Below are positions 2,587-63,994 of a stretch of DNA of 64,000 nucleotides, piece by piece. The notes below the pieces were generated by a model, which was given only the letters and a program-made list of their open reading frames with translations, made no database searches and was not told the DNA's origin. The stretch comes from an uncultured Anaerolineales bacterium (GTDB taxonomy: Bacteria; Chloroflexota; Anaerolineae; B4-G1). Location: NCBI GenBank assembly GCA_964393895.1, contig CAYMWP010000007.1, positions 81 through 64,080 on the forward strand, written 5' to 3'. Position 1 is the stretch's first letter, and the number at the start of each line of letters is the position of its first letter. The position numbers were made by a program, and so were the translations under genes.

Positions 2587-2604
2587 CAAGGAATCAAGGT
2601 GGCG

Positions 2605-2763
2605 GCCCAACAAGGGCGTCAACCTGACCGCGCTGGCGCGCGTGTAAGCGGTGGTAGACCGCGCTTTGGAGCTGGATTTCTAACGAGGTTAGTTGCCGCG
2701 CAGCCGCGCGGCGGCTGACGCGAGCCGTTAGCGCGGAACGCTTCGCGTCCCGCGCCGTTGGGC
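2605..2763 (+). repeat. attC site 2 (contains the conserved hairpin and a second inner GTT core at 2727)
   Basis: R'' GCCCAAC at 2605-2611, inner core GTTAGCG at 2727-2733 and terminal R' GTTGGGC at 2757-2763. The conserved segment gttagcgcggaacgcttcgcgtcccgcgcc is shared with four other attCs. Confidence 0.75.
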
Positions 2764-2872
2764 CGCGCTTGCTCGGATTTCACCGTCACGCTAGGTCAAC
2801 GGAGCAAAGGTAATCGGATGTCGCGATGATATGTTTCGGCCATTCCTATCTAATCTAAAAGGAGGCAAAACG

Positions 2873-3865
2873 ATGGATTGGACCAGATTCCCCAAAGTTG
2901 AATTGCACCTTCATCTAGATTGCTCGCTCAGTTATGAGGTTATCTCACAGATCGACCCATCGATCACACTTGAGCAGTACCGTATGGACTTTATTGCCCC
3001 AGCCAAGTCGGATCTAACAGAGTATCTCAAGCGTGCTCCCAGTAGCTATCCCCTTATGCAGACACAAGAACAGCTTCGCCTGGTGACGTTAGACCTGTTT
3101 GAACAACTGCGGAAGGACAACATCCTATACGCCGAGATTCGGTTTGCTCCCCTGCTGCACACCGAAAGAGGGCTTTCACCTCGTCAGGTCGTCGCCAGTG
3201 TAGAGACGACAACGGCTCAGGCTGTGCGCGACACCGGCGTTGAGGCGCGCATCATTCTCTGTACGTTGCGCTACTATTCAAGAGCGCAAAGCCTCGAAAC
3301 CGTGCGTCTGGTTGAAGATTTCCGTGGCACATATGTAGCCGGGTTCGACGTTGCGGCCGACAAACCGGGGAATGTCTTTGATGAGCACCTGGCTGCATTT
3401 CAATACGCGCGCGACAAGGATATTCCCTATACGGCACACGCCGGAGAGACACGCGGCCCAGACAATGTCTGGGACACAGTACGGCACTTTGCTCCGTCAC
3501 GCCTCGGCCACGGTGTACCGTGTCTCGAACGTCCTGAACTGGTTGAACACATTCGGAAACACCGGATCCATCTCGAGGTGTGCCCGACCTCCAACATACA
3601 AACGAATACCTTTGAGACTTACGCCAATCATCCCATCGACGAACTCTATCGGGCGGGTATATCGGTGGGCGTGAACACCGATACACGTACCATCTCGAAT
3701 ATCACGTTGAGTGAGGAGTACGAAAAGTTACACGAGACGTTTGGATGGGGTGTTGAGGACTTTTTCAACTGCAATAGGAATGCTCTGGAAGCGGCGTTTA
3801 TCTCGGACGATGTGCGAGACAGGCTGATGGCGCAATTGGTTGAAGGCTATCAGGTGACTCTATGA
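2873..3865 (+). CDS. add: Adenosine deaminase (cassette 3)
   Basis: 330 aa. ATG at 2873 follows AAAAGGAGG (2857-2865). Motifs VELHLHLDCS (HxH metal site), TAHAGE and GVNTDT match the adenosine/AMP deaminase family. Confidence 0.85.
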   Translation: MDWTRFPKVELHLHLDCSLSYEVISQIDPSITLEQYRMDFIAPAKSDLTEYLKRAPSSYPLMQTQEQLRLVTLDLFEQLRKDNILYAEIRFAPLLHTERGLSPRQVVASVETTTAQAVRDTGVEARIILCTLRYYSRAQSLETVRLVEDFRGTYVAGFDVAADKPGNVFDEHLAAFQYARDKDIPYTAHAGETRGPDNVWDTVRHFAPSRLGHGVPCLERPELVEHIRKHRIHLEVCPTSNIQTNTFETYANHPIDELYRAGISVGVNTDTRTISNITLSEEYEKLHETFGWGVEDFFNCNRNALEAAFISDDVRDRLMAQLVEGYQVTL

Positions 3866-3894
3866 CCATAACTCTATCGCGTGGAAACCGCACG

Positions 3895-4025
3895 GCCTAA
3901 CCAATCGCTGAACCTGACCTGCTAATCGAGGCTCCAATTGTTGCCCGCCTTAGTTTTGCAGCGTTTCGGTTCGCAGGTGATGTCACTGTGAAACCCGCAG
4001 GCGGGTTAGCTCGCAGCCGTTAGCG
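3895..4025 (+). repeat. attC site 3
   Basis: R'' GCCTAAC at 3895-3901 and R' GTTAGCG at 4019-4025. The left arm ...cctgacctgctaatcg is shared with attC 5 and attC 6. Confidence 0.7.
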
Positions 4026-4044
4026 CGGAACGCTTCGCGTCCCG

Positions 4045-4203
4045 CGCTAACGGCGCGGCGGATGCAGCATCCGCTGGCTAGCCTATGGCTCGCTGACGCT
4101 CGCCTCCGGCTAACCAGCGGATTGAGCCGTCCAGCCCGCCTGTCTGGCTCCGCTGTGCTCCGCCAGCCGTCGGCCTGGCGGCTCATCCGCCGCGCCGTTG
4201 GGC
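4045..4203 (+). repeat. attC site 3b (the sole content of a 178-bp ORF-less cassette, 4020-4197)
   Basis: R'' CGCTAAC at 4045-4051 is the right arm of the 33-nt hairpin (4019-4051). ctaacggcgcggcggatg (4047-4064) pairs with catccgccgcgccgttg (4184-4200). R' is GTTGGGC at 4197-4203. Visually highly similar to 6723-6859. Confidence 0.7.
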
Positions 4204-4249
4204 GGCCAGTATCCACGTTCCGTCAGCGCCTATCTTTTGTGAAAACACG

Positions 4250-5374
4250 ATGAAACTCAAAAGTTCAGCTCAATACGTTTGTGCAATTCTTGCTCCGGCG
4301 ATGTTTGCCCTGGTCGCCTGTTGCCCCCCTATAACAACAATGCCGCAAGCTACTGCGACAATGCCCCAGGCCACCCAGGAGCTAGCTCCCCTTCCACTGT
4401 CAGAACTCGGCCCGTACCACGTAGGCACGCACACGTTTACGCGCGGGGATGCCAGCCGCGATAATCGCCAAGTCGGCATTACGGTGTGGTATCCAGCCCT
4501 ACGGCCCCAAGAATCAACCTACAGCGGCCCCATCGAAGATGCGGCTCCGGACCTCAGCGGTGCACCCTATCCTTTGATCCTATCATCGACCAAAGTGGCC
4601 AGGATACTCGCCCCCTATCTGATCAGTCACGGTTTCGCCTGGGCGAGCGTCGATAGAATCGATACGTACCGTCAGATGAATGACCAGATGTTTGAACAAC
4701 CACTCGACATCCTGTTTGCGTTGGGCCAGGTTGCCTCCAGTCCGCCAGAGGGTCTGAAGGGCATGATCGACGCCGAACATGCCGGAGCCATCGGCTATTC
4801 CTTTGACGGCTACAATGCGCTGGCCTTGAGCGGAGCACGCATCAACCCCGAACACTACCTGGCTCAATGTCCGAACCCTGACGCCACGACCGAAGCGATT
4901 CTGTCGCGTCTTTCCGCCTTTGACTGCGCTCCATCTCGCGCATGGGATGAATTCGCCGTCCATGCGGGCGAGGCCATCACCACCAGTGAAGATGGAATGT
5001 GGCAACCGATGACGGATGAGCGGATTCGCGCTGTAATGCCGCTGGCCGGGGAAGGGTGGTGGTTGTTCGGTGAAAGGGGATTGGCGGCAGTCGACCGGCC
5101 TACCTTAATCATCGTTGGCACCGAGGATGAACTCTACCCGGAAAACACACTGATCTTCGAGCACCTGGGGACACCCGACAAGGCGCTGATCTCGTTCGTC
5201 GGTCGAGGCCACATGATGGTGTACGAGTCAAAGATGATCGCCCGCATGGCGCATTTCGCGGCGGCCTTTTTCGGCTACCACTTGCAGGGGCGTGAAGACC
5301 TGGCTTGGTACTTCTCGAAGGATTTCGTCGCGCAGCACGATGACCTAGCCTGGGGTGTGCATACGGACAGGTAA
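4250..5374 (+). CDS. Alpha/beta hydrolase lipoprotein (PAF-acetylhydrolase/dienelactone-hydrolase-like) (cassette 4)
   Basis: 374 aa. A lipoprotein signal with lipobox ends in ...FALVAC|C. There is a nucleophile-elbow-like IGYSFDGYNAL and a C-terminal ...IIVGTEDELYP...GRGHMM typical of alpha/beta hydrolases. Confidence 0.7.
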   Translation: MKLKSSAQYVCAILAPAMFALVACCPPITTMPQATATMPQATQELAPLPLSELGPYHVGTHTFTRGDASRDNRQVGITVWYPALRPQESTYSGPIEDAAPDLSGAPYPLILSSTKVARILAPYLISHGFAWASVDRIDTYRQMNDQMFEQPLDILFALGQVASSPPEGLKGMIDAEHAGAIGYSFDGYNALALSGARINPEHYLAQCPNPDATTEAILSRLSAFDCAPSRAWDEFAVHAGEAITTSEDGMWQPMTDERIRAVMPLAGEGWWLFGERGLAAVDRPTLIIVGTEDELYPENTLIFEHLGTPDKALISFVGRGHMMVYESKMIARMAHFAAAFFGYHLQGREDLAWYFSKDFVAQHDDLAWGVHTDR

Positions 5375-5406
5375 TGCTCGCGAAGCAAGATGGTGTGTTG
5401 CTGGCC

Positions 5407-5537
5407 GCCCAACCCACGCTGGAGGCGACAGCGCCTATCGGCGCTTTTTGAATCGCGGCTTTTTCGCTTTGCTGGTAAACTTGTTCAGCAAGTTGGTTCT
5501 GCAAATCCGGCGCTGCGCCTCAGCTTTTCCGTTGGGC
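5407..5537 (+). repeat. attC site 4
   Basis: R'' GCCCAAC at 5407-5413 and R' GTTGGGC at 5531-5537. cccaacccacgctggaggcgacagcgcc pairs with ggcgctgcgcctcagcttttccgttggg with bulges. Both flanking extensions show 13/13 complementarity with the neighbouring attCs. Confidence 0.8.
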
Positions 5538-5587
5538 GGCAACTTTCGCTCGCTCATATGAACTCGTTTCACTCAAGGATCCAGACT

Positions 5588-6559
5588 ATGGGAAAGTTCG
5601 AACTGGGCGCAATCAAAGTCAGCACTGCTGCAGCGAATGCTCTGACAGAAACCTGTCTTGAGCTAGAAACCCTACTTACCAGGCACCAGGATGGGGATTG
5701 GGGCAATGTGGATAATGCCCAGCGCCTGCGAAACGAGTGGGCCGTGGAACACAATGGACTCATCCGCTCAATGTATGAGTTACCAAACGGTGCCTTGCTC
5801 CTGGTAAGCACTGCCACTACCCGATCCTGTACTTGGGCTATGCTTGAGACGGAGTATCAAGGTAAGGAGGTCAGCATTCAGGAAGGTTATGCGCTCTGGG
5901 CTACATCTTATGACCAAGAGCGGAATCCCTTGATAGCCTTGGAGGAGCCACATGTTGACTTGATGCTGGACCAATTGGCTGCCACGGTGGCCTTGGATGT
6001 TGGCACCGGCACCGGTCGATACGCACGTAAACTTGCACAGCGTGGGATCAAGGTTTTTGCCGTTGATCGATGCTCTGAGATGCTAAACGTGGCGCAGCGC
6101 CGTGCTCAAGAGAACATGCTGAGGATAGACTTCCTGCGCGGGTCATTGAGCGCCCTCCCCTTCAGGTCAAACTACTTCGAATTGCTGGTTTGCGGACTGG
6201 TGCTGTGTCATATCCCCAATCTGATGCAGACGATAGGCGAGTTCTCGCGAGTCACGAGAGCAGGAGGACATCTCTTGATTACCGATCTTCATCCTAATGC
6301 TGTGGCAGCAGACTGGCGGACTGTGTTCGCTCAGGCAGAAGCGTGGTACCTGCTGCCCAACATCAGACACACACGGGATGATTATCTTGAGGCTGTGGAA
6401 GCGGCTGGCTTCACGCTGCTTGATGTGATCGATTTGTACCTTCGTGATATACCTGATGAAACGATGCCTTACTACGAATCGTGGGTTCGCGAAGAAGGCC
6501 ACAGGCTATTCGGCTTGATAGTCTTTGCCCAGAGGGTTGCAACAGCAGGTAGGGGGTAA
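5588..6559 (+). CDS. Fusion of an N-terminal GDWG-motif module with a class I SAM-dependent methyltransferase (cassette 5)
   Basis: ATG at 5588 follows AAGGA. The N-terminus is MGKFELG...HQDGDWGNVD...LETEY. The C-terminal domain has SAM motif I LDVGTGTGRYARKLAQRG and a Methyltransf_11-like post-I/II region. The ORF-track start at 5390 runs through attC 4 and is rejected. Confidence 0.7.
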   Translation: MGKFELGAIKVSTAAANALTETCLELETLLTRHQDGDWGNVDNAQRLRNEWAVEHNGLIRSMYELPNGALLLVSTATTRSCTWAMLETEYQGKEVSIQEGYALWATSYDQERNPLIALEEPHVDLMLDQLAATVALDVGTGTGRYARKLAQRGIKVFAVDRCSEMLNVAQRRAQENMLRIDFLRGSLSALPFRSNYFELLVCGLVLCHIPNLMQTIGEFSRVTRAGGHLLITDLHPNAVAADWRTVFAQAEAWYLLPNIRHTRDDYLEAVEAAGFTLLDVIDLYLRDIPDETMPYYESWVREEGHRLFGLIVFAQRVATAGRG

Positions 6560-6576
6560 ATCTATCAAACGTTGCC

Positions 6577-6703
6577 GCCCAACACCACATGCACCCGACC
6601 TGCTAATCGCGCGACCAAATCGACGTCGGTTTCGTTGTAGAGGGTTGTTTTGAACAGGGGGACAAACTGCAAACCCGCAGGCGGGTGATGTAAACCGTTA
6701 GCG
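6577..6703 (+). repeat. attC site 5
   Basis: R'' GCCCAAC at 6577-6583 and R' GTTAGCG at 6697-6703. The left arm cacccgacctgctaatcg is shared with attC 3 and attC 6. Confidence 0.75.
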
Positions 6704-6722
6704 CGGAACGCTTCGCGTCCCG

Positions 6723-6859
6723 CGCTAACGGCGCGGCGGACTGGCGTCCGCTGGCTAGCCTCCGGCTAACCAGCGGATCGAGCCGTCCAGCCCGCCTGTC
6801 TGGCTCCGCTGCGCTCCGCCAGCCGTCGGCCTGGTGGCTCATCCGCCGCACCGTTAGCT
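6723..6859 (+). repeat. attC site 5b (the sole content of a 156-bp ORF-less cassette, 6698-6853)
   Basis: R'' CGCTAAC at 6723-6729 is the right arm of the hairpin (6697-6729). R' is GTTAGCT at 6853-6859. It is a paralogue of 4045-4203. Confidence 0.7.
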
Positions 6860-6891
6860 GGTCGTTCGCGTTTCCTCATCCGAAAATTTCC

Positions 6892-6920
6892 TTGAGTTCA
6901 GTCACTGTTTGTAGTATAAT
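6892..6920 (+). promoter_or_regulatory. Cassette-internal sigma70-type promoter for R-M system 1
   Basis: -35 TTGAGT (6892-6897), 17-nt spacer and a perfect -10 TATAAT (6915-6920), lying 30 nt upstream of the methyltransferase ATG. Confidence 0.6.
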
Positions 6921-6950
6921 AGAATAAACGTTCTGACAAGAGGAAAATTG

Positions 6951-7847
6951 ATGAATTTCTTGAACCAGATTATTCATGGTGACTGTGAACAAGTGTTAAA
7001 AGAGTTTCCGGATAACTCGATTGGCTTGATTTTTACTTCGCCACCCTACGCAGACCAGAGAAAGAACACATATGGTGGTATAAAACCAAGTGAATATGTA
7101 GGTTGGTTTTTACCAAAGGCGAAACAATTCTTGCGTGTGCTCAAGCCCACGGGAACGTTCATCCTAAACATCAAAGAAAGAGTTGTAAACGGAGAGCGGC
7201 ATACTTACGTTATTCAGCTAATACTCCGGCTAAGAGAGCAAGGGTGGTTGTGGACGGAAGAGTTTGTCTGGCATAAGAAAAACTCTTATCCTGGCAAGTG
7301 GCCCAATAGATTTAGAGATGGATGGGAAAGATTGATACAATTCAATAAACATCGCAAGTTCAATATGTATCAGGAATCCGTTATGGTTCCCGTTGGAGAT
7401 TGGGCTCAAGATCGTTTGGCTAACCTTAGTGAAACAGACAAAATCAGAGATGAATCCAAAGTGGAAAGCGGCTTTGGTAAAAACATATCAAACTGGGTTG
7501 GGCGTGACAAGGTTTATCCAGATAATGTTGTTCATATGGCTACAGAGTGTTCAAATCGTAATCATAGTGCGGCTTTTCCGATTGACTTGCCAATTTGGTT
7601 TATCAAACTGTTCACGGCTGAAGGCGATGTAGTGTTGGACCCGTTTATTGGTTCAGGAACAACGGCAGCAGCAGCTAAACAGCTTGGACGCAGTTATGTG
7701 GGGATTGACATTAACGAGGAGTATTGCCGCCTAGCGGAAAACAGGGTTCTGCAAGTGCAACCAAGCCTATTTGAAACAATCCAATACGACAACGCGAAAC
7801 AAGAAAGCACAATACAAGTACAATCTCGTTTGCTCGAAAGAACTTGA
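6951..7847 (+). CDS. Type II DNA methyltransferase, beta-class N4-cytosine/N6-adenine (cassette 6)
   Basis: 298 aa. Motif IV is IFTSPPYADQ near the N-terminus and motif I is DPFIGSGTTAAAAKQLGRSYVGIDINEEY near the C-terminus (beta-class order). The RBS is AGAGGAAAA. Confidence 0.85.
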   Translation: MNFLNQIIHGDCEQVLKEFPDNSIGLIFTSPPYADQRKNTYGGIKPSEYVGWFLPKAKQFLRVLKPTGTFILNIKERVVNGERHTYVIQLILRLREQGWLWTEEFVWHKKNSYPGKWPNRFRDGWERLIQFNKHRKFNMYQESVMVPVGDWAQDRLANLSETDKIRDESKVESGFGKNISNWVGRDKVYPDNVVHMATECSNRNHSAAFPIDLPIWFIKLFTAEGDVVLDPFIGSGTTAAAAKQLGRSYVGIDINEEYCRLAENRVLQVQPSLFETIQYDNAKQESTIQVQSRLLERT

Positions 7848-8644
7848 AACTATACGATGGGGAGCTTGGAATGAATCCACTGGATTTAGATGAGGTTCGT
7901 CAATTTGTTAACGTCAACATCGTGTCTTTTCATCAACACCGAATCACTTCACTGGAGCAACTCACACTCAACAAGCTACTCAAGAAGAAAAACCCCTACT
8001 TGTTCAAGGCCAAACACATCACAACTGCCGGAGAGTTAATGGAAAGCCTGTTAGAGGCTTTCCTGTCTTCATCTGAAGAAAAACACTTTGGGGATTTTCT
8101 GGAAGATTTGGCAATTTTCATCGCAGGAAAAACAAGTGGAGGGCACAAGTCAACAGCACAAGGTGTTGACTTGGAATTCATTAGCAGAAAAACGCACTTT
8201 ATAGTTTCGATCAAGTCGGGGCCGAACTGGGGAAATAGCTCTCAACACAAGAAACTCGCCCAAGACCTGAGAGATGCTGTTATTCGTGTCAAACAGTCGC
8301 GAACTGCGTTGAATGTACAACCTGTGTTGGGTATTTGCTATGGAAAAACTCGCACGAATTATATGAAAGCAGGGTATCTGAAAGTCGTAGGGCAAAACTT
8401 TTGGTATCTCATTAGCGAGAATCAGGACCTCTATACCGACATCATTGAGCCAATTGGCTATCGCGCCAAAGAACGCAATGATACGTTCTATACCGAGCGC
8501 GCTAAAGTTGTAAATCGGTTCACCAAGCAATTCATTGATGATTTTTGTGCTCCGAACGGAGCAATAGATTGGGTAAAGCTCGTAGAGTTTAATAGCGGCA
8601 ACTACGATTTAGACAAGTTCTTATCCCAATCCAGTACCAGCTAA
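7844..8644 (+). CDS. Putative type II restriction endonuclease, PD-(D/E)XK-like (cassette 6)
   Basis: It overlaps the methyltransferase stop (TTGA at 7844-7847); an alternative ATG at 7871 follows GGGGAG. A candidate catalytic segment is GVDLEF...FIVSIKSG (D...E/S-x-K). The stop codon TAA (8642-8644) lies inside the R'' of attC 6. Confidence 0.6.
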   Translation: MKLYDGELGMNPLDLDEVRQFVNVNIVSFHQHRITSLEQLTLNKLLKKKNPYLFKAKHITTAGELMESLLEAFLSSSEEKHFGDFLEDLAIFIAGKTSGGHKSTAQGVDLEFISRKTHFIVSIKSGPNWGNSSQHKKLAQDLRDAVIRVKQSRTALNVQPVLGICYGKTRTNYMKAGYLKVVGQNFWYLISENQDLYTDIIEPIGYRAKERNDTFYTERAKVVNRFTKQFIDDFCAPNGAIDWVKLVEFNSGNYDLDKFLSQSSTS

Positions 8645-8796
8645 CACCCGCTGCGCACCCGACCGGGCTAATCAGCGGCAACTTTAACTGCTCCACGCCT
8701 GAGAAAGTGGTAAAAGGCAACCGTCACACGCCAGACCCGCCCGGCGGATGAGCTTTGTCGTTAGCGCGGAACGCTTCGCGTCCCGCGCCGTTAGGT
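8639..8796 (+). repeat. attC site 6 (with conserved hairpin and inner core at 8760)
   Basis: R'' AGCTAAC at 8639-8645, inner GTTAGCG at 8760-8766 and terminal R' GTTAGGT at 8790-8796. Confidence 0.8.
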
Positions 8797-8842
8797 GGCG
8801 TTAATGGTTTGTGGAGCAAACACTCAATAAAAGGAGGCTCCA

Positions 8843-9612
8843 ATGGCAATGACGAGGAAGTTCGATGGATTAGGAGGAGTGATGCTTGTATGGGTCATCG
8901 CGAATTTTCTGGGCGTTGCAGCGATTGGTGTGTCAACTCTTTTCTTTCCGCTTCTACTGCTCATTCCCATTCCTGGCTGGCTATTGGCATCTCTGATGCT
9001 GGGCTTGCCAATCGGGGTTGCTCAATGGATAGTTCTTCGACGTGTTGCTCCGGTTTCGATTCTATGACTCCACTGAAAAAACCAGGTTTTTCAATGGTTT
9101 TATGGGACAGCGTCCCACTTTTGGCTCAAAATTGACGTGTTTGTGGGAATATCTCACCAAAAAACCTGGTTTTTGGGCATTTTATCCCCACCGACGAACA
9201 AACCAACACCTTTTTTCAGGAAAGTCTTCTATGGGTTCTCACTATTACTGCTGGTCTGCTCTTGGGGTTAGTGACTCTTAATCAACTGATACCTGCTGGA
9301 ACTATGGAGTTTCTTGACGATGAGTCTGTTCTCGTATTGACAGCAGATTACACGATTATCGGCCTGCTCGTGGGATTGATTCAGTGGTTGTTCCTACGTG
9401 GTCACTTCAGCAAGTCGTGGGTTTGGGTGTTGGGCGATGGAGTTGGACTGGGACTGGGAACCGGTCTGGTATTAGCCACAAACCTGATCGATCACGGGAT
9501 ACTCTCCATCATACTTGTAACTCTGGTGTACGCTATTGTGACGGGATTAGCCATTTTGTGGTTTTCAGCCTCGCATAGAAAGGCTGAGAGTGATTTGGTC
9601 AACGCCACCTAA
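8843..9612 (+). pseudogene. Repeat-module membrane protein interrupted by a palindromic insertion (cassette 7)
   Basis: The 5' part (8843-9067, RBS AAGGAGG) ends ...GVAQWIVLRRVAPVSIL*. The 3' part is open from 9136 in another frame (…ESLLWVLTITAGLLLG…GLIQWLFLRGHFSKSWVWVLG…) to 9612. Both parts carry the same QW-x-x-LR TM module, which suggests a single ancestral gene. Confidence 0.55.
9062..9216. repeat. MITE-like insertion bracketed by inverted AAAAACCWGGTTTTT copies (boundaries approximate)
   Basis: gaaaaaaccaggtttttc (9073-9090) and caaaaaacctggtttttg (9158-9175) are inverted copies. The segment separates the two halves of the cassette-7 gene and changes the reading frame. Confidence 0.45.
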
Positions 9613-9766
9613 CCAGCCCATGAACCCGACGCCGCTATCGCGGCGCATACCGGGCGGGGCGTCGCGGAAGATACTTGCTGAATTTTCGAGCGTTTCGGGG
9701 CCAAGCCGCGTCGCGGGTTATGGGCGACCGTTAGCGCGGAACGCTTCGCGTCCCGCGCCGTTAGCA
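9607..9766 (+). repeat. attC site 7 (with conserved hairpin and inner core at 9730)
   Basis: R'' ACCTAAC at 9607-9613 (contains the stop TAA at 9610-9612). ctaaccagcccatgaacccgacgc pairs with gcgtcgcgggttatgggcgaccgttag. Inner GTTAGCG is at 9730-9736 and terminal R' GTTAGCA at 9760-9766. Confidence 0.8.
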
Positions 9767-9882
9767 CCGTCGTCTCAACCATTGCAATACTCGCCAATTA
9801 TAGCCTGTTGCGGTAAAATAGTCTGTGTGTGGACCCAAAAATCCATTTGATAATCACAGACACAGACAGGCGGTTAGAATTA

Positions 9883-10869
9883 ATGAATTTACCTCTTTTT
9901 GATACACCTAAGAAACTCGAAGACCACTTTAATCCACAGGCTGATATTGTACTTTATCAGGGAGACGTAAGCGATTTTGTTGCAACCGTTCCTGATAACT
10001 CAGTGAGTCTGATTATTACCTCACCCCCTTATAATCTAGGTAAAGAGTACGAAGACCGTGTTTCCATAGGAAAATATTTGGATACACAAGCGCAGGTGAT
10101 AGCTGAACTCTACCGTGTACTCAGAGCAGATGGTAGTGTTTGCTGGCAAGTAGGTAACTTTGTGGAAAATGGGGAAGTATATCCTTTGGATATTCTTTAC
10201 TATGATATTTTCAAGACGCTAGGCTTGCAGTTGAGGAATCGGATCGTCTGGCATTTTGGACATGGGCTGCACGCCTCCAAACGTTTCTCAGGACGTTATG
10301 AAACAATGTTGTGGTTTACCAAAAGCGATGATTATGTCTTCAATCTTGATACAGTACGTGTGCCTTCCAAATATCCAGGCAAGCGACACTATAAAGGCCC
10401 TAAGAAAGGCAAGTTATCGGGCAATCCTTTGGGCAAGAATCCCTCAGATGTTTGGGAATTTCTGGCCCAGGAATGGGAAGCTGCTTTTTGGGACATTCCA
10501 AATGTGAAATCAAATCACCCAGAAAAAACGATTCATCCTTGTCAATATCCTATTGCACTAATTGAAAGGTGTGTTCTGGCGCTGACTAACGAAGGCGATT
10601 GGGTGTTTGACCCTTACGTAGGAGTAGGAACCTCACTGATTGCTGGCACAATGCACAATCGTCGTGTGATGGGTAGTGAGCAAGAGTCCAAGTATATTGA
10701 TATTGCCCGTGAACGTCTTCAAGCGTACTTCAATGGCGCGCTACCTTATCGTCCTCTTGGTAAGCCTGTTTACCAGCCCACAGGAAGGGAAAAAGTGTCG
10801 CAAATGCCAGAAGAATGGCAAAACGCAACTCAGGGACGGCTACTAGAAGAAAAAGGAAAATATGAATGA
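9883..10869 (+). CDS. Type II DNA methyltransferase, beta-class (N4-cytosine-type SPPY motif) (cassette 8)
   Basis: ATG at 9883 (MNLPLFDTPKK); the ORF-track GTG at 9829 is possible. Motif IV is IITSPPYNLGKEY and motif I is DPYVGVGTSLIAG. It overlaps the downstream endonuclease gene (ATGA at 10866-10869). Confidence 0.85.
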   Translation: MNLPLFDTPKKLEDHFNPQADIVLYQGDVSDFVATVPDNSVSLIITSPPYNLGKEYEDRVSIGKYLDTQAQVIAELYRVLRADGSVCWQVGNFVENGEVYPLDILYYDIFKTLGLQLRNRIVWHFGHGLHASKRFSGRYETMLWFTKSDDYVFNLDTVRVPSKYPGKRHYKGPKKGKLSGNPLGKNPSDVWEFLAQEWEAAFWDIPNVKSNHPEKTIHPCQYPIALIERCVLALTNEGDWVFDPYVGVGTSLIAGTMHNRRVMGSEQESKYIDIARERLQAYFNGALPYRPLGKPVYQPTGREKVSQMPEEWQNATQGRLLEEKGKYE

Positions 10870-11438
10870 AAATCACAGGCATATACTCGTTCAATAACGG
10901 CAGAGAAATCATCGAGGCCAAGTTCGCAGCCGAGTTGCATGACGTAAAGCAAGTCATTGCAGCCGTAGACAGCAAGAGACACAAGACAAAGACCAGCCGT
11001 GAAAAGACTATGCCTGGGAGAAAGTTGTACAGTCCTCGTGCGCTCAACAAGGCTTTCGAAGCAGAGTTTGAAGAAAGGGAATGGCATACTCGTAGAGTCG
11101 CGTGCGATTACCCAACACAATACTATGTTGGTGACTATCAATCAGACGACTCGTTTTCAGGAGCCTTTCGTGAGATGGACTTTGTAAAGAATCGTGTAGG
11201 CGTAGAAGTGCAATTCGGCAAGTATGCCTTTATGGTTTACAATGTCTGTGCCAAGATGACGATATTTCATAAGCTCGACGTGATTGATGTCGGAATCGAG
11301 GTTGTACCAGTCAAAGAGTTTGCGAACGAAATGTCAACGGGCGTTTCGTACTTTGAGCAGTTTGTGTGGGATCTGGAGCAACGCGGGGTTTCTGACATTG
11401 ACATTCCAGTACTCATTCTTGGAATCACCCACAAGTAG
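10866..11438 (+). CDS. BglII/BamHI-like type II restriction endonuclease (cassette 8)
   Basis: 190 aa. MDFVKNRVGVEVQ gives D105-X8-E114-X-Q116, the same spacing as the BglII catalytic triad Asp84-X8-Glu93-X-Gln95 as recalled. It is translationally coupled to the methyltransferase. Confidence 0.7.
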   Translation: MKITGIYSFNNGREIIEAKFAAELHDVKQVIAAVDSKRHKTKTSREKTMPGRKLYSPRALNKAFEAEFEEREWHTRRVACDYPTQYYVGDYQSDDSFSGAFREMDFVKNRVGVEVQFGKYAFMVYNVCAKMTIFHKLDVIDVGIEVVPVKEFANEMSTGVSYFEQFVWDLEQRGVSDIDIPVLILGITHK

Positions 11439-11461
11439 GCCGGATAAAGTAGTGAGTGAGG

Positions 11462-11590
11462 TGCTAACCCCGCATCCACCCGACTTGGCTGAGCGGCGCG
11501 CTTTCCAAGTTTTTCACCCGCATTGGGGTTGGCTGACAGGCGGAGGTGTTCACGCCGCAGCCGCCAAGCGGGTGATGCTAGCCGTTATGC
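11462..11590 (+). repeat. attC site 8
   Basis: R'' TGCTAAC at 11462-11468 and R' GTTATGC at 11584-11590. gctaaccccgcatccacccgacttggc pairs with gccaagcgggtgatgctagccgttat with bulges. It lacks the conserved hairpin. Confidence 0.75.
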
Positions 11591-11618
11591 GGCAAATACA
11601 AAACACGGGAGAATTCAA

Positions 11619-13049
11619 ATGAAAAGCAGACATTTGCTTGTAGCGCTCACTCTAGGATTAGGATTGTCTTTGACTCTGCTATGGTTGCTGAGTGGCAGAT
11701 TGTCCGCCAACGCTGCGCCAGCTGAAGAACTGCGAGTCTGTCTCAATGGATGTTCTTACTCATCTATACAGGCTGCCGTAGATGATGCCAGCAGTGGCGA
11801 TGTCATAAAGGTAGTGGCTGGCATCTACACCGATGTGCATGTGCGTCCCCGCAACGATATTGCCGCGACTGGACTCGTCACACAAGTAGTTTACATCAGT
11901 AAAACGGTGACCATCCAAGGCGGCTACACTACCAATAACTGGACTACACCAGACCCTGAGGCTAACCCTACCACGTTGGATGCAGGAAGCCAAGGCCGTG
12001 TGATCTATATTACTGGAGACATCAGTCCCACGATTGAAGGATTGCGCATTACTGGCGGTGATGCATCCGGGCTGGGTGGCGATGGGTCGTTCTTTGGACA
12101 AGATGCTGGTGGCGGCATCTATATCATCAGCGCGACGGCTATCATCAAGGATAACTATGTGTTCAGCAATACTGCTGAATATGGCGGTGGGATATACCAG
12201 AGTTTGGGTGCAGGCAAAGTAAGCGAGAATACAATTAGCGAGAACTTTGCTTCCGGTGAGGGAGGCGGGGTGGGCCTGTATGAAAGCACCGCCTTGCTTG
12301 ATAACAATCTCATCAGTCACAATACATCTTCCTGGGGAGGTGGGCTTTACCTGCACTCCAGCCCGGCAGCACTCATTGATAATATCATCACTGCCAACGT
12401 GTCTACGGGGCGCGGTGGCGGAGGCCTGTTCTTATGGTGGAGCGACGCTGTTCTGACTGGAAATCGAATCATTTCCAATACATCGCCCTGGAATATTAAC
12501 GGCGGAATACACGTTTTTTCCAGTTCTCCAGCACTGACTAATAATGTAATCGTGGGCAACCAAAGCGGCGGGATACAAATTGAAGGACGCTCAGATCTCC
12601 ACTTGTTGCACAACACCGTTGCCGACAACGGAACGGACGGTATTGGGATGTACGTGACACACTACATTGACTTGTGGGGAACCCCTATGTACGCCTCTGT
12701 GGCGCTGACCAATACTATCTTGGTGAGTCACAGTGTTGCCATCAGTATCACGGGCGGCAACACCGTGACGGTCAATAGTGTCCTTTGGCACAACACGCCC
12801 ATCACTGTTTCGCAGTCCACAACGGCGACTGTCAGCGTGCAGAATCAGCGCACTGGCGATCCAGCCTTCGCTGCTGACGGTTACCATCTGACGATTGGTT
12901 CGGCAGCTATTGACAATGGCGTGGATGCTGGGGTGGTGACGGACATTGATGATGAACCGCGCCCCGCTAGTGTGGGTTATGATCTCGGCGCGGATGAGAT
13001 TTGGCACAGTATCTACCTTCCGCTGATCTCACGCAGCTATCAACCGTAG
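11619..13049 (+). CDS. Secreted right-handed parallel beta-helix repeat protein (cassette 9)
   Basis: ATG at 11619 follows GGGAG. Signal/TM sequence is MKSRHLLVALTLGLGLSLTLLWLL...ANA. It has repeated GGGIY/GGGLYL/GGGLFLW turns and a C-terminal DIDDEPRP...YDLGADE motif. It ends in IYLPLISRSYQP. Confidence 0.8.
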   Translation: MKSRHLLVALTLGLGLSLTLLWLLSGRLSANAAPAEELRVCLNGCSYSSIQAAVDDASSGDVIKVVAGIYTDVHVRPRNDIAATGLVTQVVYISKTVTIQGGYTTNNWTTPDPEANPTTLDAGSQGRVIYITGDISPTIEGLRITGGDASGLGGDGSFFGQDAGGGIYIISATAIIKDNYVFSNTAEYGGGIYQSLGAGKVSENTISENFASGEGGGVGLYESTALLDNNLISHNTSSWGGGLYLHSSPAALIDNIITANVSTGRGGGGLFLWWSDAVLTGNRIISNTSPWNINGGIHVFSSSPALTNNVIVGNQSGGIQIEGRSDLHLLHNTVADNGTDGIGMYVTHYIDLWGTPMYASVALTNTILVSHSVAISITGGNTVTVNSVLWHNTPITVSQSTTATVSVQNQRTGDPAFAADGYHLTIGSAAIDNGVDAGVVTDIDDEPRPASVGYDLGADEIWHSIYLPLISRSYQP

Positions 13050-36159: not shown

Positions 36160-37524
36160 ATGGAACAACAATTTGATCTACTCTTGACCGGCGGCACGGT
36201 CGTCACTGGGGAGCACATCCGCCGCGCCGACGTGGGCGTGCAGGGCGAAATCATCGCCGCCGTCGAGCCAGACCTGCCCCGCGAGGCGGCCCGCGAGGTG
36301 GTGGACGCCAGCGGCCGGTACGTCTTCCCTGGCATCATTGACGTGCACGTCCACCCTGTTTATCTGGACAGCGTGGAGGATTGCTCGCGCGTCGCGGCCT
36401 ACGGCGGCACGACCACGCTCTTGCACTATGCCTACGCCCGCACCGGCGACAGCCTGCTGCAAAAGGTCGAAGAGATGCTGGCGGACGGGCTGGCGAACTC
36501 GCTGCTCGACTTTGGCCTGCACGGGGGGATGTTCGAGGCTCCCAGGCAGTTGCAGGACGTGCCCCAGGTGTTCGAGATGGGGGTCCGCACTTTCAAGTTC
36601 TTTATGCCCTACGTCAAACAAGGGTGGACCACCGACGACTACCACCTGGTCAGAGCGATGGACATACTGGCCGGCCTGGGCGGTATGGCGATGGTCCATG
36701 CCGAGAACGGCGGCGCGATTGACTACCTGGAGGACAAATATCTCACGCGGCCTGATGCTTCGGCCAGATACTACAACGTCACCCGCCCGGCGGCGATGGA
36801 GGAGGAGGCCGTCTTCCGCGCCATCCGCATGGCCGAGGTGATGGGGTGCCCGCTCTACATTGCGCACAACACGACCGCCCGCGCCATCCGCCACATCCGC
36901 GACGCGCAGGAGGCGGGGCTGCCGGTCTATGCCGAGACCTGCCCTCAATACCTCACGCTGACCAAAGACATACTTGAAGAGCGCGGAGCCTTGGCCAAGA
37001 TCGGCCCGCCCATCCGCACTGCCGAGGATCGGGCCGGGCTGTGGGACGCGCTGGCCGAGGGTGTGATCCAGACAGTCGCCACCGACCACGCGCCGAAACG
37101 CAAGGACGTGAACGGCGACTTTATCGAGCAGCCATTTGGCGCTCCCCAGATCGAGACGCTGCTCCCGCTGGTCTATGACGGCGGCGTGAACACGGGGCGC
37201 ATCAGCGTGGTGCGTTTGGTGCAGGTGCTGTGTGAGAACCCGGCCCGCATCTTTGGGCTCTATCCCAAGAAAGGCACCATCGCCATTGGCTCCGACGCCG
37301 ACCTGGTGGTCTTTGACCCCACCCGCACGTTCACTATCCGCGCCGAGAACCAACATTCCAACGCCGGGTACACGCTGTACGAGGGGCGCACCGTGCTGGG
37401 CTGGCCGGAGATGTCCTTCCAACGAGGGCAGCGCGTCCTGTGGCGGGGAGAGATCGTGGCCGGGCCGGGGCGGGCGCAGTTCCTGCCCACGCTCGAATCG
37501 CGGGTGGATCCGCTGACGACTTGA
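36160..37524 (+). CDS. Cyclic amidohydrolase (dihydropyrimidinase/hydantoinase family)
   Basis: FPGIIDVHVH metal motif, carbamyl-Lys context RTFKFFMPY, MVHAENG and ATDHAP. Confidence 0.8.
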   Translation: MEQQFDLLLTGGTVVTGEHIRRADVGVQGEIIAAVEPDLPREAAREVVDASGRYVFPGIIDVHVHPVYLDSVEDCSRVAAYGGTTTLLHYAYARTGDSLLQKVEEMLADGLANSLLDFGLHGGMFEAPRQLQDVPQVFEMGVRTFKFFMPYVKQGWTTDDYHLVRAMDILAGLGGMAMVHAENGGAIDYLEDKYLTRPDASARYYNVTRPAAMEEEAVFRAIRMAEVMGCPLYIAHNTTARAIRHIRDAQEAGLPVYAETCPQYLTLTKDILEERGALAKIGPPIRTAEDRAGLWDALAEGVIQTVATDHAPKRKDVNGDFIEQPFGAPQIETLLPLVYDGGVNTGRISVVRLVQVLCENPARIFGLYPKKGTIAIGSDADLVVFDPTRTFTIRAENQHSNAGYTLYEGRTVLGWPEMSFQRGQRVLWRGEIVAGPGRAQFLPTLESRVDPLTT

Positions 37525-60333: not shown

Positions 60334-61524
60334 TCACGGATTTGCCTCAATTCCTTGCGTATAGTTCTGAACCTCAAGATAGATTATCCGTGGCTCAAAG
60401 TCCGTCGTCACAAAGGCGTAATAGTCCTGGTAACTGAGGGTCGAGGCGGGGTAGCGAAAGGCCCACATAGCGACGCACTCGCACCAGGGCCAGTGCCGGC
60501 TGGCCCACTCGTAAGCGGAGGTGGTGTACTGGATGCGCTCTGCCGGGCTGACGGAATTGGCCCAGCGTGGGTGGTCGTTCCAGCCGGCCTCGGTGACGTA
60601 GATTGATTTATCGCCGTCGCCGCGGGCGACCATCACCTCGCGCAAAATTTCGACGCGGCGAAAGTTGATTATGTAGGGAGAGGGAGGTTCATCCGGTGGG
60701 GACGTCAGCCCATAGGCGTGGGCGGCGAGTGCGTCAAAGTAGGGTGCGGCTCCGGCCTGGTACATGCGCTCCAGGTAGGCCAGATCGCTCAAGCCGGCAC
60801 TGCTGCCCTCCGGCTCCAGCGTGGGCGCCAGCGCGCCCGCCAGCACGACCACGTCGGGGTTGGCGGCGTGGGCGCGGGGGTAGACCTCCCGCAGTAGTTC
60901 GACGTATCCCTCGGGGTCCACTGGCCGGTAGCCCCACTCGAAGCTGAGGTTGGGTTCGTTCCACAGGATAACGTGGTTCACGCGGCCCCGGTAGCGTCCA
61001 ACGAAAGCGGCCACAAAGGCGGCAAAGTCGTCATAGTGGTCGGGGTCCAGATAGGTGAGGGTGGTTGCTTGCTCGTCGGGGTCGGGGCGGACCCACCAGG
61101 GCACCCAGCCCAGCCGGGCGATGACGGTCAGTCCCTGGTTCTCGGCCTGTTCGATCAATGCGTCGCTGTGGCTCCAGTTGAACTTGCTCTCTTCGGCCTC
61201 GATATAGGGCCAGGGGAAGAACTCGACGACCCAGGGTGCGCCCATCTGGCGCACCATCTGTAGTGTGCGTTGGATCTTCCATTCCTCCACCTCGTCGGTG
61301 AGGCGGGTGTGGACGCCGACGATGGGGTTGGTGGTTATCACTTGCTGGGGCGGGCCGAGAGGGATCAACACAGGCGCGGGACGGGCGGCCCACAGAGTGA
61401 ATATCGCCAGTGTCAGGAGGAGCAAGTGGGCCGGTCGGGCGCGACGCAACAGGGTAGAGACTCGATCCCAGACAGAGGTCATCAGTTTACCCACGGCCAT
61501 ACGCATTGGGTGCAGCGCCGTCAA
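60334..61524 (-). CDS. Membrane-anchored TIM-barrel glycoside hydrolase (GH5/GH39-like)
   Basis: N-terminal TM (LLLLTLAIFTLWAA) and the acid/base motif context HVILWNEPN. The start codon is uncertain. Confidence 0.5.
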   Translation of the reverse strand: MTALHPMRMAVGKLMTSVWDRVSTLLRRARPAHLLLLTLAIFTLWAARPAPVLIPLGPPQQVITTNPIVGVHTRLTDEVEEWKIQRTLQMVRQMGAPWVVEFFPWPYIEAEESKFNWSHSDALIEQAENQGLTVIARLGWVPWWVRPDPDEQATTLTYLDPDHYDDFAAFVAAFVGRYRGRVNHVILWNEPNLSFEWGYRPVDPEGYVELLREVYPRAHAANPDVVVLAGALAPTLEPEGSSAGLSDLAYLERMYQAGAAPYFDALAAHAYGLTSPPDEPPSPYIINFRRVEILREVMVARGDGDKSIYVTEAGWNDHPRWANSVSPAERIQYTTSAYEWASRHWPWCECVAMWAFRYPASTLSYQDYYAFVTTDFEPRIIYLEVQNYTQGIEANP

Positions 61525-61579
61525 ACCGAGAAAGGTGAATGAAGCAAAAAGGGGAAGCAGCGCTTCCCCTTTCTGACGT

Positions 61580-61894
61580 TGGCTCCTCGGGTAGGACTTG
61601 AACCTACAGCCAACCGGTTACGTCTACCCCCGCGTTTCCACGAGGAACGGACTATCTCATCACCCCAGAGGGGTGCGGGGCGCTCGAGGATGGCTTATCG
61701 GTCGGGCTCCTCACCATCTAGTCTCTGCACCTTCCCGGTTACTGTGATGCCCATTCACCGGGCTTGGCTCAGGATTGCCGTCACCCAAAGTGTTACGGTT
61801 TCCCTGAATTCACCCCGTTTTTCCGCTGGCCATTGCTGGTCAGGGCTGCAATTTAGCCTACAGCCGGCCGCTCTGCCAATTGAGCTACCGAGGA
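61580..61894 (-). tRNA. tRNA-Asn(GUU) interrupted by a group I intron (exons 61860-61894 and 61580-61620)
   Basis: The joined exons give a 76-nt cloverleaf: TCCTCGG TA GCTC AATTGGCA GAGC G GCCGG CTGT|TAA CCGGT TGGCT GTAGG TTCAAGT CCTAC CCGAGGA G CCA. All stems are Watson-Crick apart from one G-U pair. CCA is encoded. Confidence 0.85.
61621..61859 (-). ncRNA. Group I intron (IC3-like, 239 nt, no ORF) in the anticodon loop between nt 35 and 36
   Basis: The 5' exon ends in U and the intron ends in G. P1 pairs exon GGCUGU (61860-61865) with intron GCAGCC (61844-61849), with a U.G pair at the splice site. Core segments GGCAAUCCUGAGCCAAGCC (61761-61779) and GGAAGGUGCAGAGACUAGAUGG (61714-61735) match the conserved IC3 core recalled from the cyanobacterial tRNA-Leu and Azoarcus tRNA-Ile introns. 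Confidence 0.8.
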
Positions 61895-61908: not shown

Positions 61909-61936
61909 ATTATACCGCCGAACGGCTAAATGTCAA
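61909..61936 (-). promoter_or_regulatory. Consensus sigma70 promoter of the tRNA-Asn gene
   Basis: On the minus strand: TTGACA (61936-61931), 16-nt spacer and TATAAT (61914-61909), ending 14 nt upstream of tRNA position 1. Confidence 0.7.
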
Positions 61937-62186: not shown

Positions 62187-63994
62187 CGCAGTACCGCTAA
62201 AGTGACCCTGTAGCAAAAGTGGGGTATCATAGGCAAAACCTTAGCAAGAGGAGCCTATGAAAACCCCGAAAGAATTATACCCTAGTGAGCGCATCATATA
62301 CAAACCTGAATTGCTCGTCTGCCCACATTGTGGAGACCGACTGTTGATGTACAACTATCTGGCCTGGGACAAAACGGTGCAGACATTGGATCGCATTCTA
62401 TCCATCGCTAGCCGACCCGGTCACTGTGCCAACCCCACATGCACCGGGAGCGACGCACGCTTCCTTTCAGCGGAGGGACAGCAAATTGCTCCCTCAGGTT
62501 TTACCTACGGCTACGACGTCGTAGCCCGCATCGGTTGGCAGCGTCAGGAACGACGCGATATCTACACCGATATTCAAGCCGATCTCGCATCCCGGATTCA
62601 GATTTCGGAGTCTCACGTGCGTTATCTCTATCAGCAGGTCTATCTGCCCCTTTTGGCTTGCCACGAGCGGACCTACTGGGACCGTCTGGCCCAGACCGCA
62701 CAACAACACGGCGGGTTGATCATCGCCCTGGATGGTCTAGCACCGGAAGGCGGTGAGCCCCAACTGTGGTTCATTCGCGAACTCCTGACCGATCTGACGC
62801 TCCGCAGCGGGTGGTTGAGCCGCTTCGATCAATCGACCTTCGAGACATTTCTCCAGCCGCTGGGCGAATTACCTTGGCCGATTCTCGCTATCTTGAGCGA
62901 CAAACAGAAGGGATTGCTCCCAGCTGTATCTACTATCCTGCCCGATGCACACCATCACTTCTGTCACGCCCATTACCTGGACAATCTTGCTGAGCCATTG
63001 GCTGATGCGGATTCCACGTTCAAGGTCGAGCTACGCAAAGCCGTACGCGAAGAAGTCGGCATGTTGATTCGGGTTGAAAAGACGTCCCAAACACCCCAGT
63101 CAAACGTGTTGACAGTGACAGGCTTGTTGCCGGATGAGTTGCCTACCGTCACAGAGTCAGAAACCGCCAAATCCGAATCATCTGAGCCAAAATCAGACTC
63201 TATCCAAGCCGACGAAGTGGTCACCCACCTGCTTCGCCACACACGCTATCTGCTGACCATCAAGGGACGGCCGCCTTTTCGTCTCGCCGGTATAGAGATG
63301 TATCAGCGGCTACAGGGCGTCGTTGCCCTGACCGATGACTTGCTGGCCCACCGACACGATCCTCGCATGGCCGATTTGAACCAGGGCATCCGCACAGCGT
63401 TGTCCTCATTCGAGAATCAGTGTCAAGATCTACAGCAAGGGGCTGTCTGGCTGCGAGATATTGATCAGATCCTCACACCTGCCGACAATACATCCGTCAC
63501 CGGCGAGGACATCTCCCTACAACTGCGAACCTATCTGGATGAACTGCTTGACCTACCCGCCCCCTCCCCTCTCTTGGACGATTTTCGTCGCCATTTGGAC
63601 AAGGTCAGCACCAGTTACTGGCCCGGTCTGTTTCACTGCTACGATCTGGAAGGTCTGCCGCGCACAAACAATGATATGGAGAGCCTCTTCCGCGACACCA
63701 AACGGCGTTTGCTTCGGACCACCGGCCAGAAGGGCCAAACCCGACGTGCCCTACAACGCACCGGCGCATGGGAACTCTTGCCCAGGCCACCCAACGAGGC
63801 TGGGCGTCTGGACGCGTTGCGTCAAGTGCCCAAATGTCAGCTGGATGAAGAACGAGAACGCTTGAATCGACATCAAGAACGATTTCTGTTGCACTCTCGA
63901 TCTACTCGGCGTATCGACGCTCAATTCGACAAACTTCGCCAGCAATGGCTATCTCTCGCGGCTACTTCAACAGGGTGACTTTAGCGCTACTGCG
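62187..63994 (+). mobile_element. Insertion sequence (~1.8 kb, single DDE-type transposase, 24-bp imperfect terminal inverted repeats)
   Basis: IRL cgcagtaccgctaaagtgaccctg (62187-62210) matches the reverse complement of IRR cagggtgactttagcgctactgcg (63971-63994) at 22/24. The transposase stop lies inside IRR. Confidence 0.75.
62257..63978 (+). CDS. IS transposase (N-terminal Zn-finger CPHCG...; DDE-like ALDG / LSDKQKG / TNNDMESLFRDTKRR); family not assigned
   Basis: 573-aa ORF with RBS AAGAGGAG, bounded by the terminal inverted repeats. Confidence 0.75.
   Translation: MKTPKELYPSERIIYKPELLVCPHCGDRLLMYNYLAWDKTVQTLDRILSIASRPGHCANPTCTGSDARFLSAEGQQIAPSGFTYGYDVVARIGWQRQERRDIYTDIQADLASRIQISESHVRYLYQQVYLPLLACHERTYWDRLAQTAQQHGGLIIALDGLAPEGGEPQLWFIRELLTDLTLRSGWLSRFDQSTFETFLQPLGELPWPILAILSDKQKGLLPAVSTILPDAHHHFCHAHYLDNLAEPLADADSTFKVELRKAVREEVGMLIRVEKTSQTPQSNVLTVTGLLPDELPTVTESETAKSESSEPKSDSIQADEVVTHLLRHTRYLLTIKGRPPFRLAGIEMYQRLQGVVALTDDLLAHRHDPRMADLNQGIRTALSSFENQCQDLQQGAVWLRDIDQILTPADNTSVTGEDISLQLRTYLDELLDLPAPSPLLDDFRRHLDKVSTSYWPGLFHCYDLEGLPRTNNDMESLFRDTKRRLLRTTGQKGQTRRALQRTGAWELLPRPPNEAGRLDALRQVPKCQLDEERERLNRHQERFLLHSRSTRRIDAQFDKLRQQWLSLAATSTG

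Follow-up and report, generated by a model that had tools for sequence, protein, structure and literature searches.

Organization of the split tRNA-Asn gene

The window, a stretch of 64,000 nt (64 kb) from contig CAYMWP010000007.1 of an uncultured Chloroflexota bacterium that was analysed as a whole, carries a tRNA-Asn(GUU) gene on its minus strand, and the anticodon loop of this gene is interrupted by a group I intron of 239 nt. From the promoter to the terminator, the gene consists of the following elements.

61909..61936, minus strand: sigma-70-type promoter (TTGACA 61936-61931, 16-nt spacer, TATAAT 61914-61909; promoter scan, 12/12)
61860..61894, minus strand: 5' exon of tRNA-Asn(GUU), 35 nt, 3' end CUGU (ARAGORN on the joined exons and in intron mode)
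61621..61859, minus strand: group I intron, 239 nt, first nucleotide A, last nucleotide G, no open reading frame (ORF) (Rfam RF00028)
61580..61620, minus strand: 3' exon of tRNA-Asn, 41 nt, UAA at the start and CCA at the end (ARAGORN)
61546..61569, minus strand: intrinsic terminator, GGGGAAGC-GCU-GCUUCCCC followed by UUUUU (terminator scan and sequence)

The 5' exon (minus strand 61894-61860, UCCUCGGUAGCUCAAUUGGCAGAGCGGCCGGCUGU) contained the 5' strand of the acceptor stem, the D arm, the 5' strand of the anticodon stem and the loop residues C32, U33, G34 and U35. The 3' exon (minus strand 61620-61580, UAACCGGUUGGCUGUAGGUUCAAGUCCUACCCGAGGAGCCA) continued with U36, A37 and A38, followed by the 3' strand of the anticodon stem, the variable loop, the T arm, the 3' strand of the acceptor stem, G73 and an encoded CCA. 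The joined exons formed a 76-nt cloverleaf with a 7-bp acceptor stem, a discriminator G and the encoded CCA, and ARAGORN called it tRNA-Asn(gtt), which confirmed to the base the exon join 61894-61860 plus 61620-61580 proposed in an earlier, sequence-only reading of this DNA. In its intron mode, the same program placed the split gene at c[61580,61894], its intron of 239 nt lying at position 36. No junction other than 35/36 lets the 5' exon end in U and the intron in G while also restoring a loop of 7 nt, CUGUUAA; the splice site is unique because the U.G pair in P1 and the terminal G fix the junction.

The flanking signals lay close to the exons. The TATAAT box ended 14 nt upstream of tRNA position 1, and the terminator hairpin started 10 nt past the CCA of the tRNA; the perfect TTGACA-16-TATAAT promoter that had been noticed by eye just upstream reached the score of 12/12 given above.

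The gene was overlooked by standard searches, as had been predicted. Default ARAGORN found zero tRNAs across the whole window, and the Rfam tRNA model gave no match to the split gene. The tRNAscan-SE 2.0 paper states that the program was not designed to detect group I introns in tRNAs. The intron mode of ARAGORN also proposed a tRNA-Gln(ctg) with a 601-nt intron at 36822-37511 on the plus strand. This candidate lay inside an ORF of 454 aa (36160-37524), had no Rfam intron match and was rejected as almost certainly a false positive.

Structure of the intron

The sequence-only reading had proposed a group I intron from hallmarks that included a U at the end of the 5' exon and a G at the end of the intron, and had named a scan with the Rfam Intron_gpI model as the check. 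The hallmarks were confirmed in the sequence, and the scan returned a full-length match to Intron_gpI (RF00028) at 61869-61628 on the minus strand, covering model positions 1-253 of 253 with 86.6 bits and an E value of 1.1e-20 (gathering score, 50), a match far beyond chance. RF00028 was the sole Rfam family above threshold in the window. The intron had a G+C content of 60%, and its host tRNA-Asn(GUU), the cut after the fourth nucleotide of the anticodon loop, the U at position -1 and the terminal G (omega-G) place it in the setting known as Asn.4Ug. The helices and junctions are listed below; all are on the minus strand.

61865-61860: exon strand of P1, GGCUGU, the last 6 nt of the 5' exon
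61844..61849: internal guide GCAGCC, the 3' strand of P1 (pairs GC, GC, CG, UA, GC and UG with the exon)
61826..61843: P2 hairpin CUGACCA-GCAA-UGGCCAG, 7 bp including one A.C mismatch, GNRA tetraloop (sequence reading)
61729..61817: 5' strand of P3 (61817-61811) and P4-P5-P6 domain (helix assignment)
61817-61811 with 61682-61676: P3, CGGGGUG/CGCCCCG
within 61729..61817: P4, UCAGGG/UCCUGA; P5, CCGU/ACGG; P6, GCC/GGU; P6a, CCCGG/CCGGG
61719..61725: 5' strand of P7, GAGACUA with a bulged A, pairing with UAGUCC at 61654-61649 and forming a pseudoknot with P3
61689..61718: extra P7.1-like hairpin between P7 and the 3' strand of P3, 30 nt, stem GAUGG/CCAUC around a conserved GAGGA...AUAA
part of 61649..61682: 3' strand of P3, CGCCCCG (61682-61676), and P8, CACCCC-UCU-GGGGUG (61675-61661) (helix assignment)
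part of 61649..61682: J8/7, AUGAGA (61660-61655), and 3' strand of P7, UAGUCC (61654-61649) (helix assignment)
61648-61646 with 61624-61622: P9.0, GUU/GAC (3/3 pairs covary)
61645-61628: P9 hairpin CCUCGUG-GAAA-CGCGGGG (6/7 pairs covary)
61621: omega-G, read directly in the window and followed by the UAA of the anticodon loop

All the core helices were intact in the window intron, and the tetraloops GCAA (L2, of the GNRA type) and GAAA (L9) were present. The P1 helix formed by GGCUGU and GCAGCC, with a U.G pair at the splice site, had also been put forward earlier, and the pairing held, the U of the wobble pair being U35. In the pseudoknotted P7 helix, all 6 pairs were formed. The guanosine-binding site of group I introns in general lies in P7, and this helix is the presumed guanosine-binding helix here. 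No homing-endonuclease ORF was present in the window intron because 239 nt leaves no room for one.

Conservation of the fold

The window intron was aligned with 50 Asn introns no longer than 320 nt, giving an alignment of 51 sequences. These sequences had been chosen by a pattern that fixes the J8/7-P7' segment (GAUGAGAUAGUCC) and the G|UAA 3' splice site. RNAalifold found compensatory changes in 43 of the 58 pairs of its consensus structure, in which the exon-exon anticodon stem is included. The P1-P9 model, which was scored including the P7 pseudoknot, the extra hairpin and P9.0, had 91.7% of its cells paired, as compared with 32-46% when the partners were slid, and changes on both sides were observed in 49 of 71 pairs. 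The covariation score of the model was 0.484, the controls stayed at or below 0.118, and none of 500 shuffles reached the observed values.

The individual helices behaved in the same way. Between 93 and 98% of the cells were paired in P3, P4, P6 and P6a, all six counted pairs of P2 covaried across the family, and in the subset that bears the extra hairpin all five of its stem pairs covaried. In P1, the GCAGC of the guide and the CUGU of the exon were invariant in 51 of 51 family members, the U.G pair at the splice-site position was likewise found in all 51, and two intron-side pairs covaried. P7 was invariant in 48-51 of the 51 sequences and is therefore uninformative for covariation, though intact. 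In the other 50 introns, 90 columns reach a conservation of at least 90%, and the window intron conformed to every one of them. These results showed that the Asn.4Ug class is under strong structural selection.

Relation to known introns

A survey in which about 80,000 bacterial genomes were scanned reports that the known settings of group I introns in bacterial tRNAs rose from 4 to 21 (Williams, bioRxiv 10.1101/2020.01.27.920355). The four classical settings are given there as Leu.3Ug, Arg.5Ug, fMet.2Ug and Ile2.5Ug, all of subgroup IC3, and the seed alignment of the survey holds an intron named Pam37.Asn.4Ug, in which tRNA-Asn is split as CUGU/UAA. The sequence-only reading had taken the Asn(GUU) host and the 35/36 site to be new. 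This claim does not stand, since Pam37.Asn.4Ug has the identical tRNA and site and at least 80 further complete examples were found in our scans. Judged by its sequence, the window intron is a new member of the Asn.4Ug class, which had been catalogued earlier by bioinformatics alone; our literature search found no other report of a tRNA-Asn group I intron.

Among five comparators aligned pairwise to the window intron, Pam37.Asn.4Ug was the best (score 265, 180 identities), followed by Dba165.Lys.2Ug (227), a phage intron (207), the cyanobacterial Leu intron (172) and the Azoarcus Ile intron (138). Pam37.Asn.4Ug shares with the window intron the tRNA-Asn(GUU) host, the CUGU/UAA insertion between positions 35 and 36, the U at position -1 and the omega-G, as well as the sequence blocks CGGAAAA..GGGUGAAUUCARGGAAACC, GCAGAGACUA, the GAGGAGCC...AUAA hairpin, AGCGCCC and GAUGAGAUAGUCC. 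It differs in being AT-rich, in its length, which the seed alignment gives as 276 nt with the last 4 nucleotides of the exon counted in, and in having an extra hairpin and spacer ahead of P2, whereas the window copy, from an uncultured Chloroflexota host, is compact, with 239 nt and 60% G+C.

In the seed row of Pam37.Asn.4Ug (file gpI.sto), UGUA is paired with a nearby UGUA as P1. This published assignment of P1 is probably misplaced, because the motif GCAGCC, of which GCAGC is invariant in the 51 Asn introns and pairs with the exon CUGU, is found about 40 nt downstream of that position.

The classical IC3 introns of Azoarcus tRNA-Ile(CAU) and cyanobacterial tRNA-Leu(UAA) resemble the window intron in their anticodon-loop site, in a U-ended 5' exon paired to a G in P1, in their compactness, in the GNRA tetraloop of L2 and the GAAA of L9, and in near-identical P4/P6 and J6/7-P7 strings (GGCAAUCCUGAGCCAAGC and GAAGGUGCAGAGACUAGA). 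They differ in host tRNA and site (Leu 34/35, Ile 36/37), in J8/7, which reads AUGAGAUAGUCC in the window intron and AAGGGAUAGUCC or AAGGCAUAGUCC in the classical introns, and in lacking the 30-nt hairpin between P7 and P3', and their alignment scores (172 and 138, above) were lower.

Introns of phage protein genes, as in the viral contigs L069, L088 and L120, share with the window intron GGGUGAAUUCAGGGAAACC, GGCAAUCCUGAGCCAAGC, GAAGGUGCAGAGACUA, a hairpin before AGCGCCCGA, and GGUGAUGAGAUAGUCC. They differ in lying within an ORF instead of a tRNA and in having a P1 guide complementary to coding sequence. The core pattern AGAGACTA..GATGAGATAGTCC had at least 120 matches in viral contigs, mostly in phage protein-gene introns, and three split-tRNA calls were obtained among the viral matches listed. 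In one viral contig (L097:~13970-14400), two related group I cores with the GAGGAGCC...AAUAA hairpin stood in tandem within about 400 nt, not in a tRNA.

The direct succession of P7 and P3', without a P7.1 or P7.2 insertion, is a defining trait of subgroup IC3. An IC3 core had been read from the sequence by eye, and this reading was right in part: the strings that it quoted agree with those of the cyanobacterial Leu and Azoarcus Ile introns, but the GAUGG that it included opens the extra hairpin and is not the P3' strand. The core strings of P4, P6 and J6/7, the GCAA of L2 and the GAAA of L9 are those of IC3, whereas P3' does not directly follow P7 in the window intron, the 30-nt covarying hairpin (61718-61689) lying between them. 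In the Williams alignment, the Leu.3Ug, Arg.5Ug, fMet.2Ug and Ile2.5Ug seeds have nothing but gaps in the columns of this hairpin; the hairpin is present in the Asn.4Ug, Lys.2Ug and Phe.2Ug seeds of that alignment and in many phage protein-gene introns, and members of the Asn family carry none, one or two hairpins between P7 and P3'. Because this extra covarying hairpin sits between P7 and P3', the window intron is labelled IC3-like rather than IC3, with a P7.1-type insertion.

Split tRNA-Asn genes in other genomes

Metagenomes were scanned with a pattern composed of J8/7-P7', a gap, GUAA, a gap and the T-loop. Among the metagenome matches listed, ARAGORN identified 69 distinct tRNA-Asn(GUU) genes split as CUGU|...G|UAA with introns of 191-898 nt, and 51 of these 69 genes had an encoded CCA. 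A stricter test, in which five of five anticodon-stem pairs and seven of seven acceptor pairs were required, left at least 80 complete split tRNA-Asn genes among the 123 matches listed, all with a discriminator G; at least 78 came from the metagenome scan and two from viral contigs, and most of the remaining matches were cut by contig ends. The two viral copies, at L015:~1925-2230 and L246:~1900-2180, lie on jumbo-phage-sized IMG/VR contigs (436 and 470 kb), and their tRNA-Asn(GUU) genes are split by an intron of the Asn.4Ug class. The exons were diverse, and the class therefore spans many lineages.

ARAGORN called about 20 of the metagenome cases and the two jumbo-phage cases as tRNA-Thr(UGU). 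Under strict stem pairing, most of them proved to be tRNA-Asn; the miscalls arise because the exon ends in ..UGU and the intron in ..UG.

Some of the introns were much longer than that of the window. About 19 of the 69 introns among the matches listed measured 425-898 nt, and most of these encoded an endonuclease of the LAGLIDADG type or else a protein of about 110-135 aa with an HNH motif. In the endonuclease-encoding relatives with introns of 545-898 nt, the domains were HNH (PF01844) and LAGLIDADG (PF03161, PF14528). The carriers were as follows.

HNH-bearing Asn introns: L181, L136, L166, L169, L176, L184, L191, L198, L199, L211, L235
LAGLIDADG-bearing Asn introns: L126, L189, L151

On the evidence of these matches, the Asn.4Ug class is common in environmental bacteria and partly mobile.

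Genomic context and the status of the gene

In three relatives of the window, L143, L180 and L181, the interrupted tRNA-Asn gene adjoins a homologue of the ORF that lies downstream of the tRNA in the window. The intron was well conserved among them, with identities of 90% to L143 and 82% to L180 in the alignment of 51 introns, and the intron-exon segments aligned by BLAST were 88% identical to both L143 and L181; the ORF had a nucleotide identity of 75-83% between the window and the three relatives. A promoter of the form TTGAC(A/G)-N16/17-TATAAT was found at equal distance in all three, though the flanks diverge. In L181 (2110-2674), the intron, 88% identical to that of the window, carries an HNH-motif ORF (CxxC...HH...CxxCH, no Pfam match) in the P1 loop.

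The downstream ORF encodes 396 aa (60334-61524, minus strand), follows the tRNA immediately and had no Pfam or NCBIfam family match; an exact-protein look-up with the version that begins at its first start codon also gave no match.

On the upstream side, an insertion sequence (IS) element had been proposed 290 bp beyond. This is plausible in so far as the 573-aa ORF found there (62257-63978, plus strand) has homologues in Nostoc plasmids that occur in several copies and carry a transposase annotation, but the ORF had no Pfam domain, its best Pfam and NCBIfam transposase matches were sub-threshold, and its similarity to the IS256/ISH6 hidden Markov models was only weak. Through its histidine kinase, the window was traced to JGI metagenome data (samples 3300029267 and 3300017989). 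A contig from another sample (L002:1-172), 99.99% identical to the window, diverged completely from it upstream of 62189, which points to a rearrangement or an insertion of the IS type some 300 nt upstream of the tRNA.

An IS-like ORF and a strain-variable junction about 300 nt upstream would fit a decaying pseudogene, in which the intron no longer splices and Asn is decoded by another tRNA-Asn gene, and so would the single mismatch in P2 and a locus that differs from the rpoD-adjacent tRNA-Asn position of related metagenome-assembled genomes (MAGs). We regard a dead pseudogene as very improbable, because the core, exons and promoter are intact and conserved across species: the intron deviated at none of the 90 conserved family columns, every core helix was intact, the exons had the canonical form and an identity of about 99% to their uninterrupted homologues, the promoter was perfect and kept in the three syntenic relatives, and the intron was better conserved than the neighbouring protein gene. 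The element is real and probably functional.

Species-representative genomes were scanned with a 38-mer consisting of the first 38 nt of the 3' exon. The 38-mer matched in only two genomes, both uncultured Anaerolineaceae MAGs, in which the tRNA-Asn gene is uninterrupted (L124:1618-1691 and L125:3777-3850). This match by itself makes Chloroflexota the probable phylum of the source. As compared with the exons of the window, one D-loop nucleotide differed in the 5' exon, and the 38 nt of the 3' half were identical. Both uninterrupted genes lack an encoded CCA and directly follow rpoD. Interrupted tRNA-Asn genes were found in the same rpoD-adjacent position in L174 (4961-5293), L225 (277-623), L198, L222 and L186. 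The rpoD-adjacent site is thus occupied in some genomes and empty in the MAGs, so that the intron is present or absent at an orthologous site.

These gene positions bear on the possibility that the window gene is spliced and functional but redundant, being a second tRNA-Asn beside a housekeeping copy, uninterrupted or interrupted, that follows rpoD, in which case the cell would be independent of the ribozyme. Two Anaerolineaceae MAGs carry nearly the same tRNA uninterrupted right after rpoD, L174 and L225 have their interrupted tRNA-Asn at that position, and the clade of the window (the window, L143, L180 and L181) has it at another locus, with no rpoD in the available upstream sequence. However, neither the 64 kb of the window nor some 490 kb of sequence flanking the 69 interrupted genes contained a second tRNA-Asn that the scans could detect, gene order may simply vary among lineages, and the locus has been stable across species that have diverged by about 20%. 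A redundant second copy is possible but somewhat doubtful.

Proposed splicing pathway

Taken as a whole, the locus is very probably an expressed monocistronic tRNA-Asn(GUU) gene that carries, between U35 and U36, a group I intron of the Asn.4Ug class, 239 nt long and without an ORF. The anatomy and the selection on the fold come from the sequences analysed here; the splicing chemistry, including self-splicing, we infer from the group I family.

Transcription would run from the TTGACA/TATAAT promoter to the intrinsic terminator. In the precursor, the exon residues G30-U35 (GGCUGU) would be released from the anticodon stem-loop and form P1 with the guide GCAGCC, with U35.G marking the 5' splice site. 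The P3-P9 core would then fold, and an exogenous guanosine bound in P7 would attack after U35. The terminal G (61621), placed by P9.0 and P9, would take the place of this guanosine in the P7 site, and the free 3'-OH of U35 would attack before U36, so that the exons would be ligated into mature tRNA-Asn and the intron released. Modification of the anticodon loop would occur only after splicing. The window intron encodes no homing endonuclease and is passed on vertically in its lineage; the relatives with HNH or LAGLIDADG proteins represent the mobile forms.

Several points weigh against this reading. The invariance of J8/7-P7' and of the 3' splice-site G in the other sequences is not independent evidence because it was imposed by the scan pattern. 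P2 of the window contains the A.C mismatch, and the closest relative, L143, has a perfect CUGGCCA/UGGCCAG with a GUAA loop. A P10 pairing with the 3' exon was sought, and none was convincing. In related MAGs and contigs the tRNA-Asn gene lies downstream of rpoD, which is not so in the window. In addition, the literature search found no splicing experiment or transcript data for any Asn.4Ug intron.

The lack of an evident P10 is also relevant to the dependence of splicing on proteins. Many group I introns require protein cofactors in vivo, and the window copy is without the HNH or LAGLIDADG ORF of its relatives, so that the intron might belong to group I by its fold and yet need a host or intron-family protein to splice in vivo, without self-splicing under physiological conditions. 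On the other hand, the small, related IC3 introns of bacterial tRNAs, from Azoarcus and cyanobacteria, self-splice in vitro; the core of the window intron, with the GNRA tetraloop of L2 and the GAAA of L9, is complete; and the HNH and LAGLIDADG proteins of the relatives belong to endonuclease families. We consider a requirement for such a cofactor unlikely, and favour a self-splicing intron in an expressed tRNA-Asn gene.

Implications

Genomes and MAGs of such organisms will seem to be without tRNA-Asn because a split gene of this kind escapes the Rfam tRNA model and ARAGORN in its default mode. A tRNA-Asn missed in this way can distort completeness estimates as well as analyses of codon usage and tRNA repertoire.

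The Asn.4Ug class is so far known from one bioinformatic preprint, and the comparative set assembled here documents it as widespread. The set contains at least 80 complete split genes, ORF-less, HNH and LAGLIDADG forms of the intron, sites next to rpoD with and without the intron, and two copies from jumbo-phage contigs. The biology of the class is that of the classical introns of tRNA-Leu, tRNA-Ile, tRNA-fMet and tRNA-Arg, and no new question is opened by it.

A bolder proposal, which we judge to be quite unlikely, is that the split gene is the only tRNA-Asn gene of the lineage, so that every Asn codon depends on a ribozyme, and that its splicing serves as a checkpoint tuning the supply of tRNA-Asn and the modification of its anticodon. 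If so, splicing would be sensitive to guanosine and Mg2+ and would compete with the anticodon stem for nucleotides 30-35. In a milder form of this proposal, the GAGGA...AUAA hairpin between P7 and P3' would be an undescribed tertiary-contact module common to tRNA and phage introns.

Base composition of the window

Several 2-kb bins in the region 1-12000 of the window had a G+C content of 0.47-0.49, as compared with 0.60-0.66 over most of the window. This region of low G+C may be foreign or mobile DNA.

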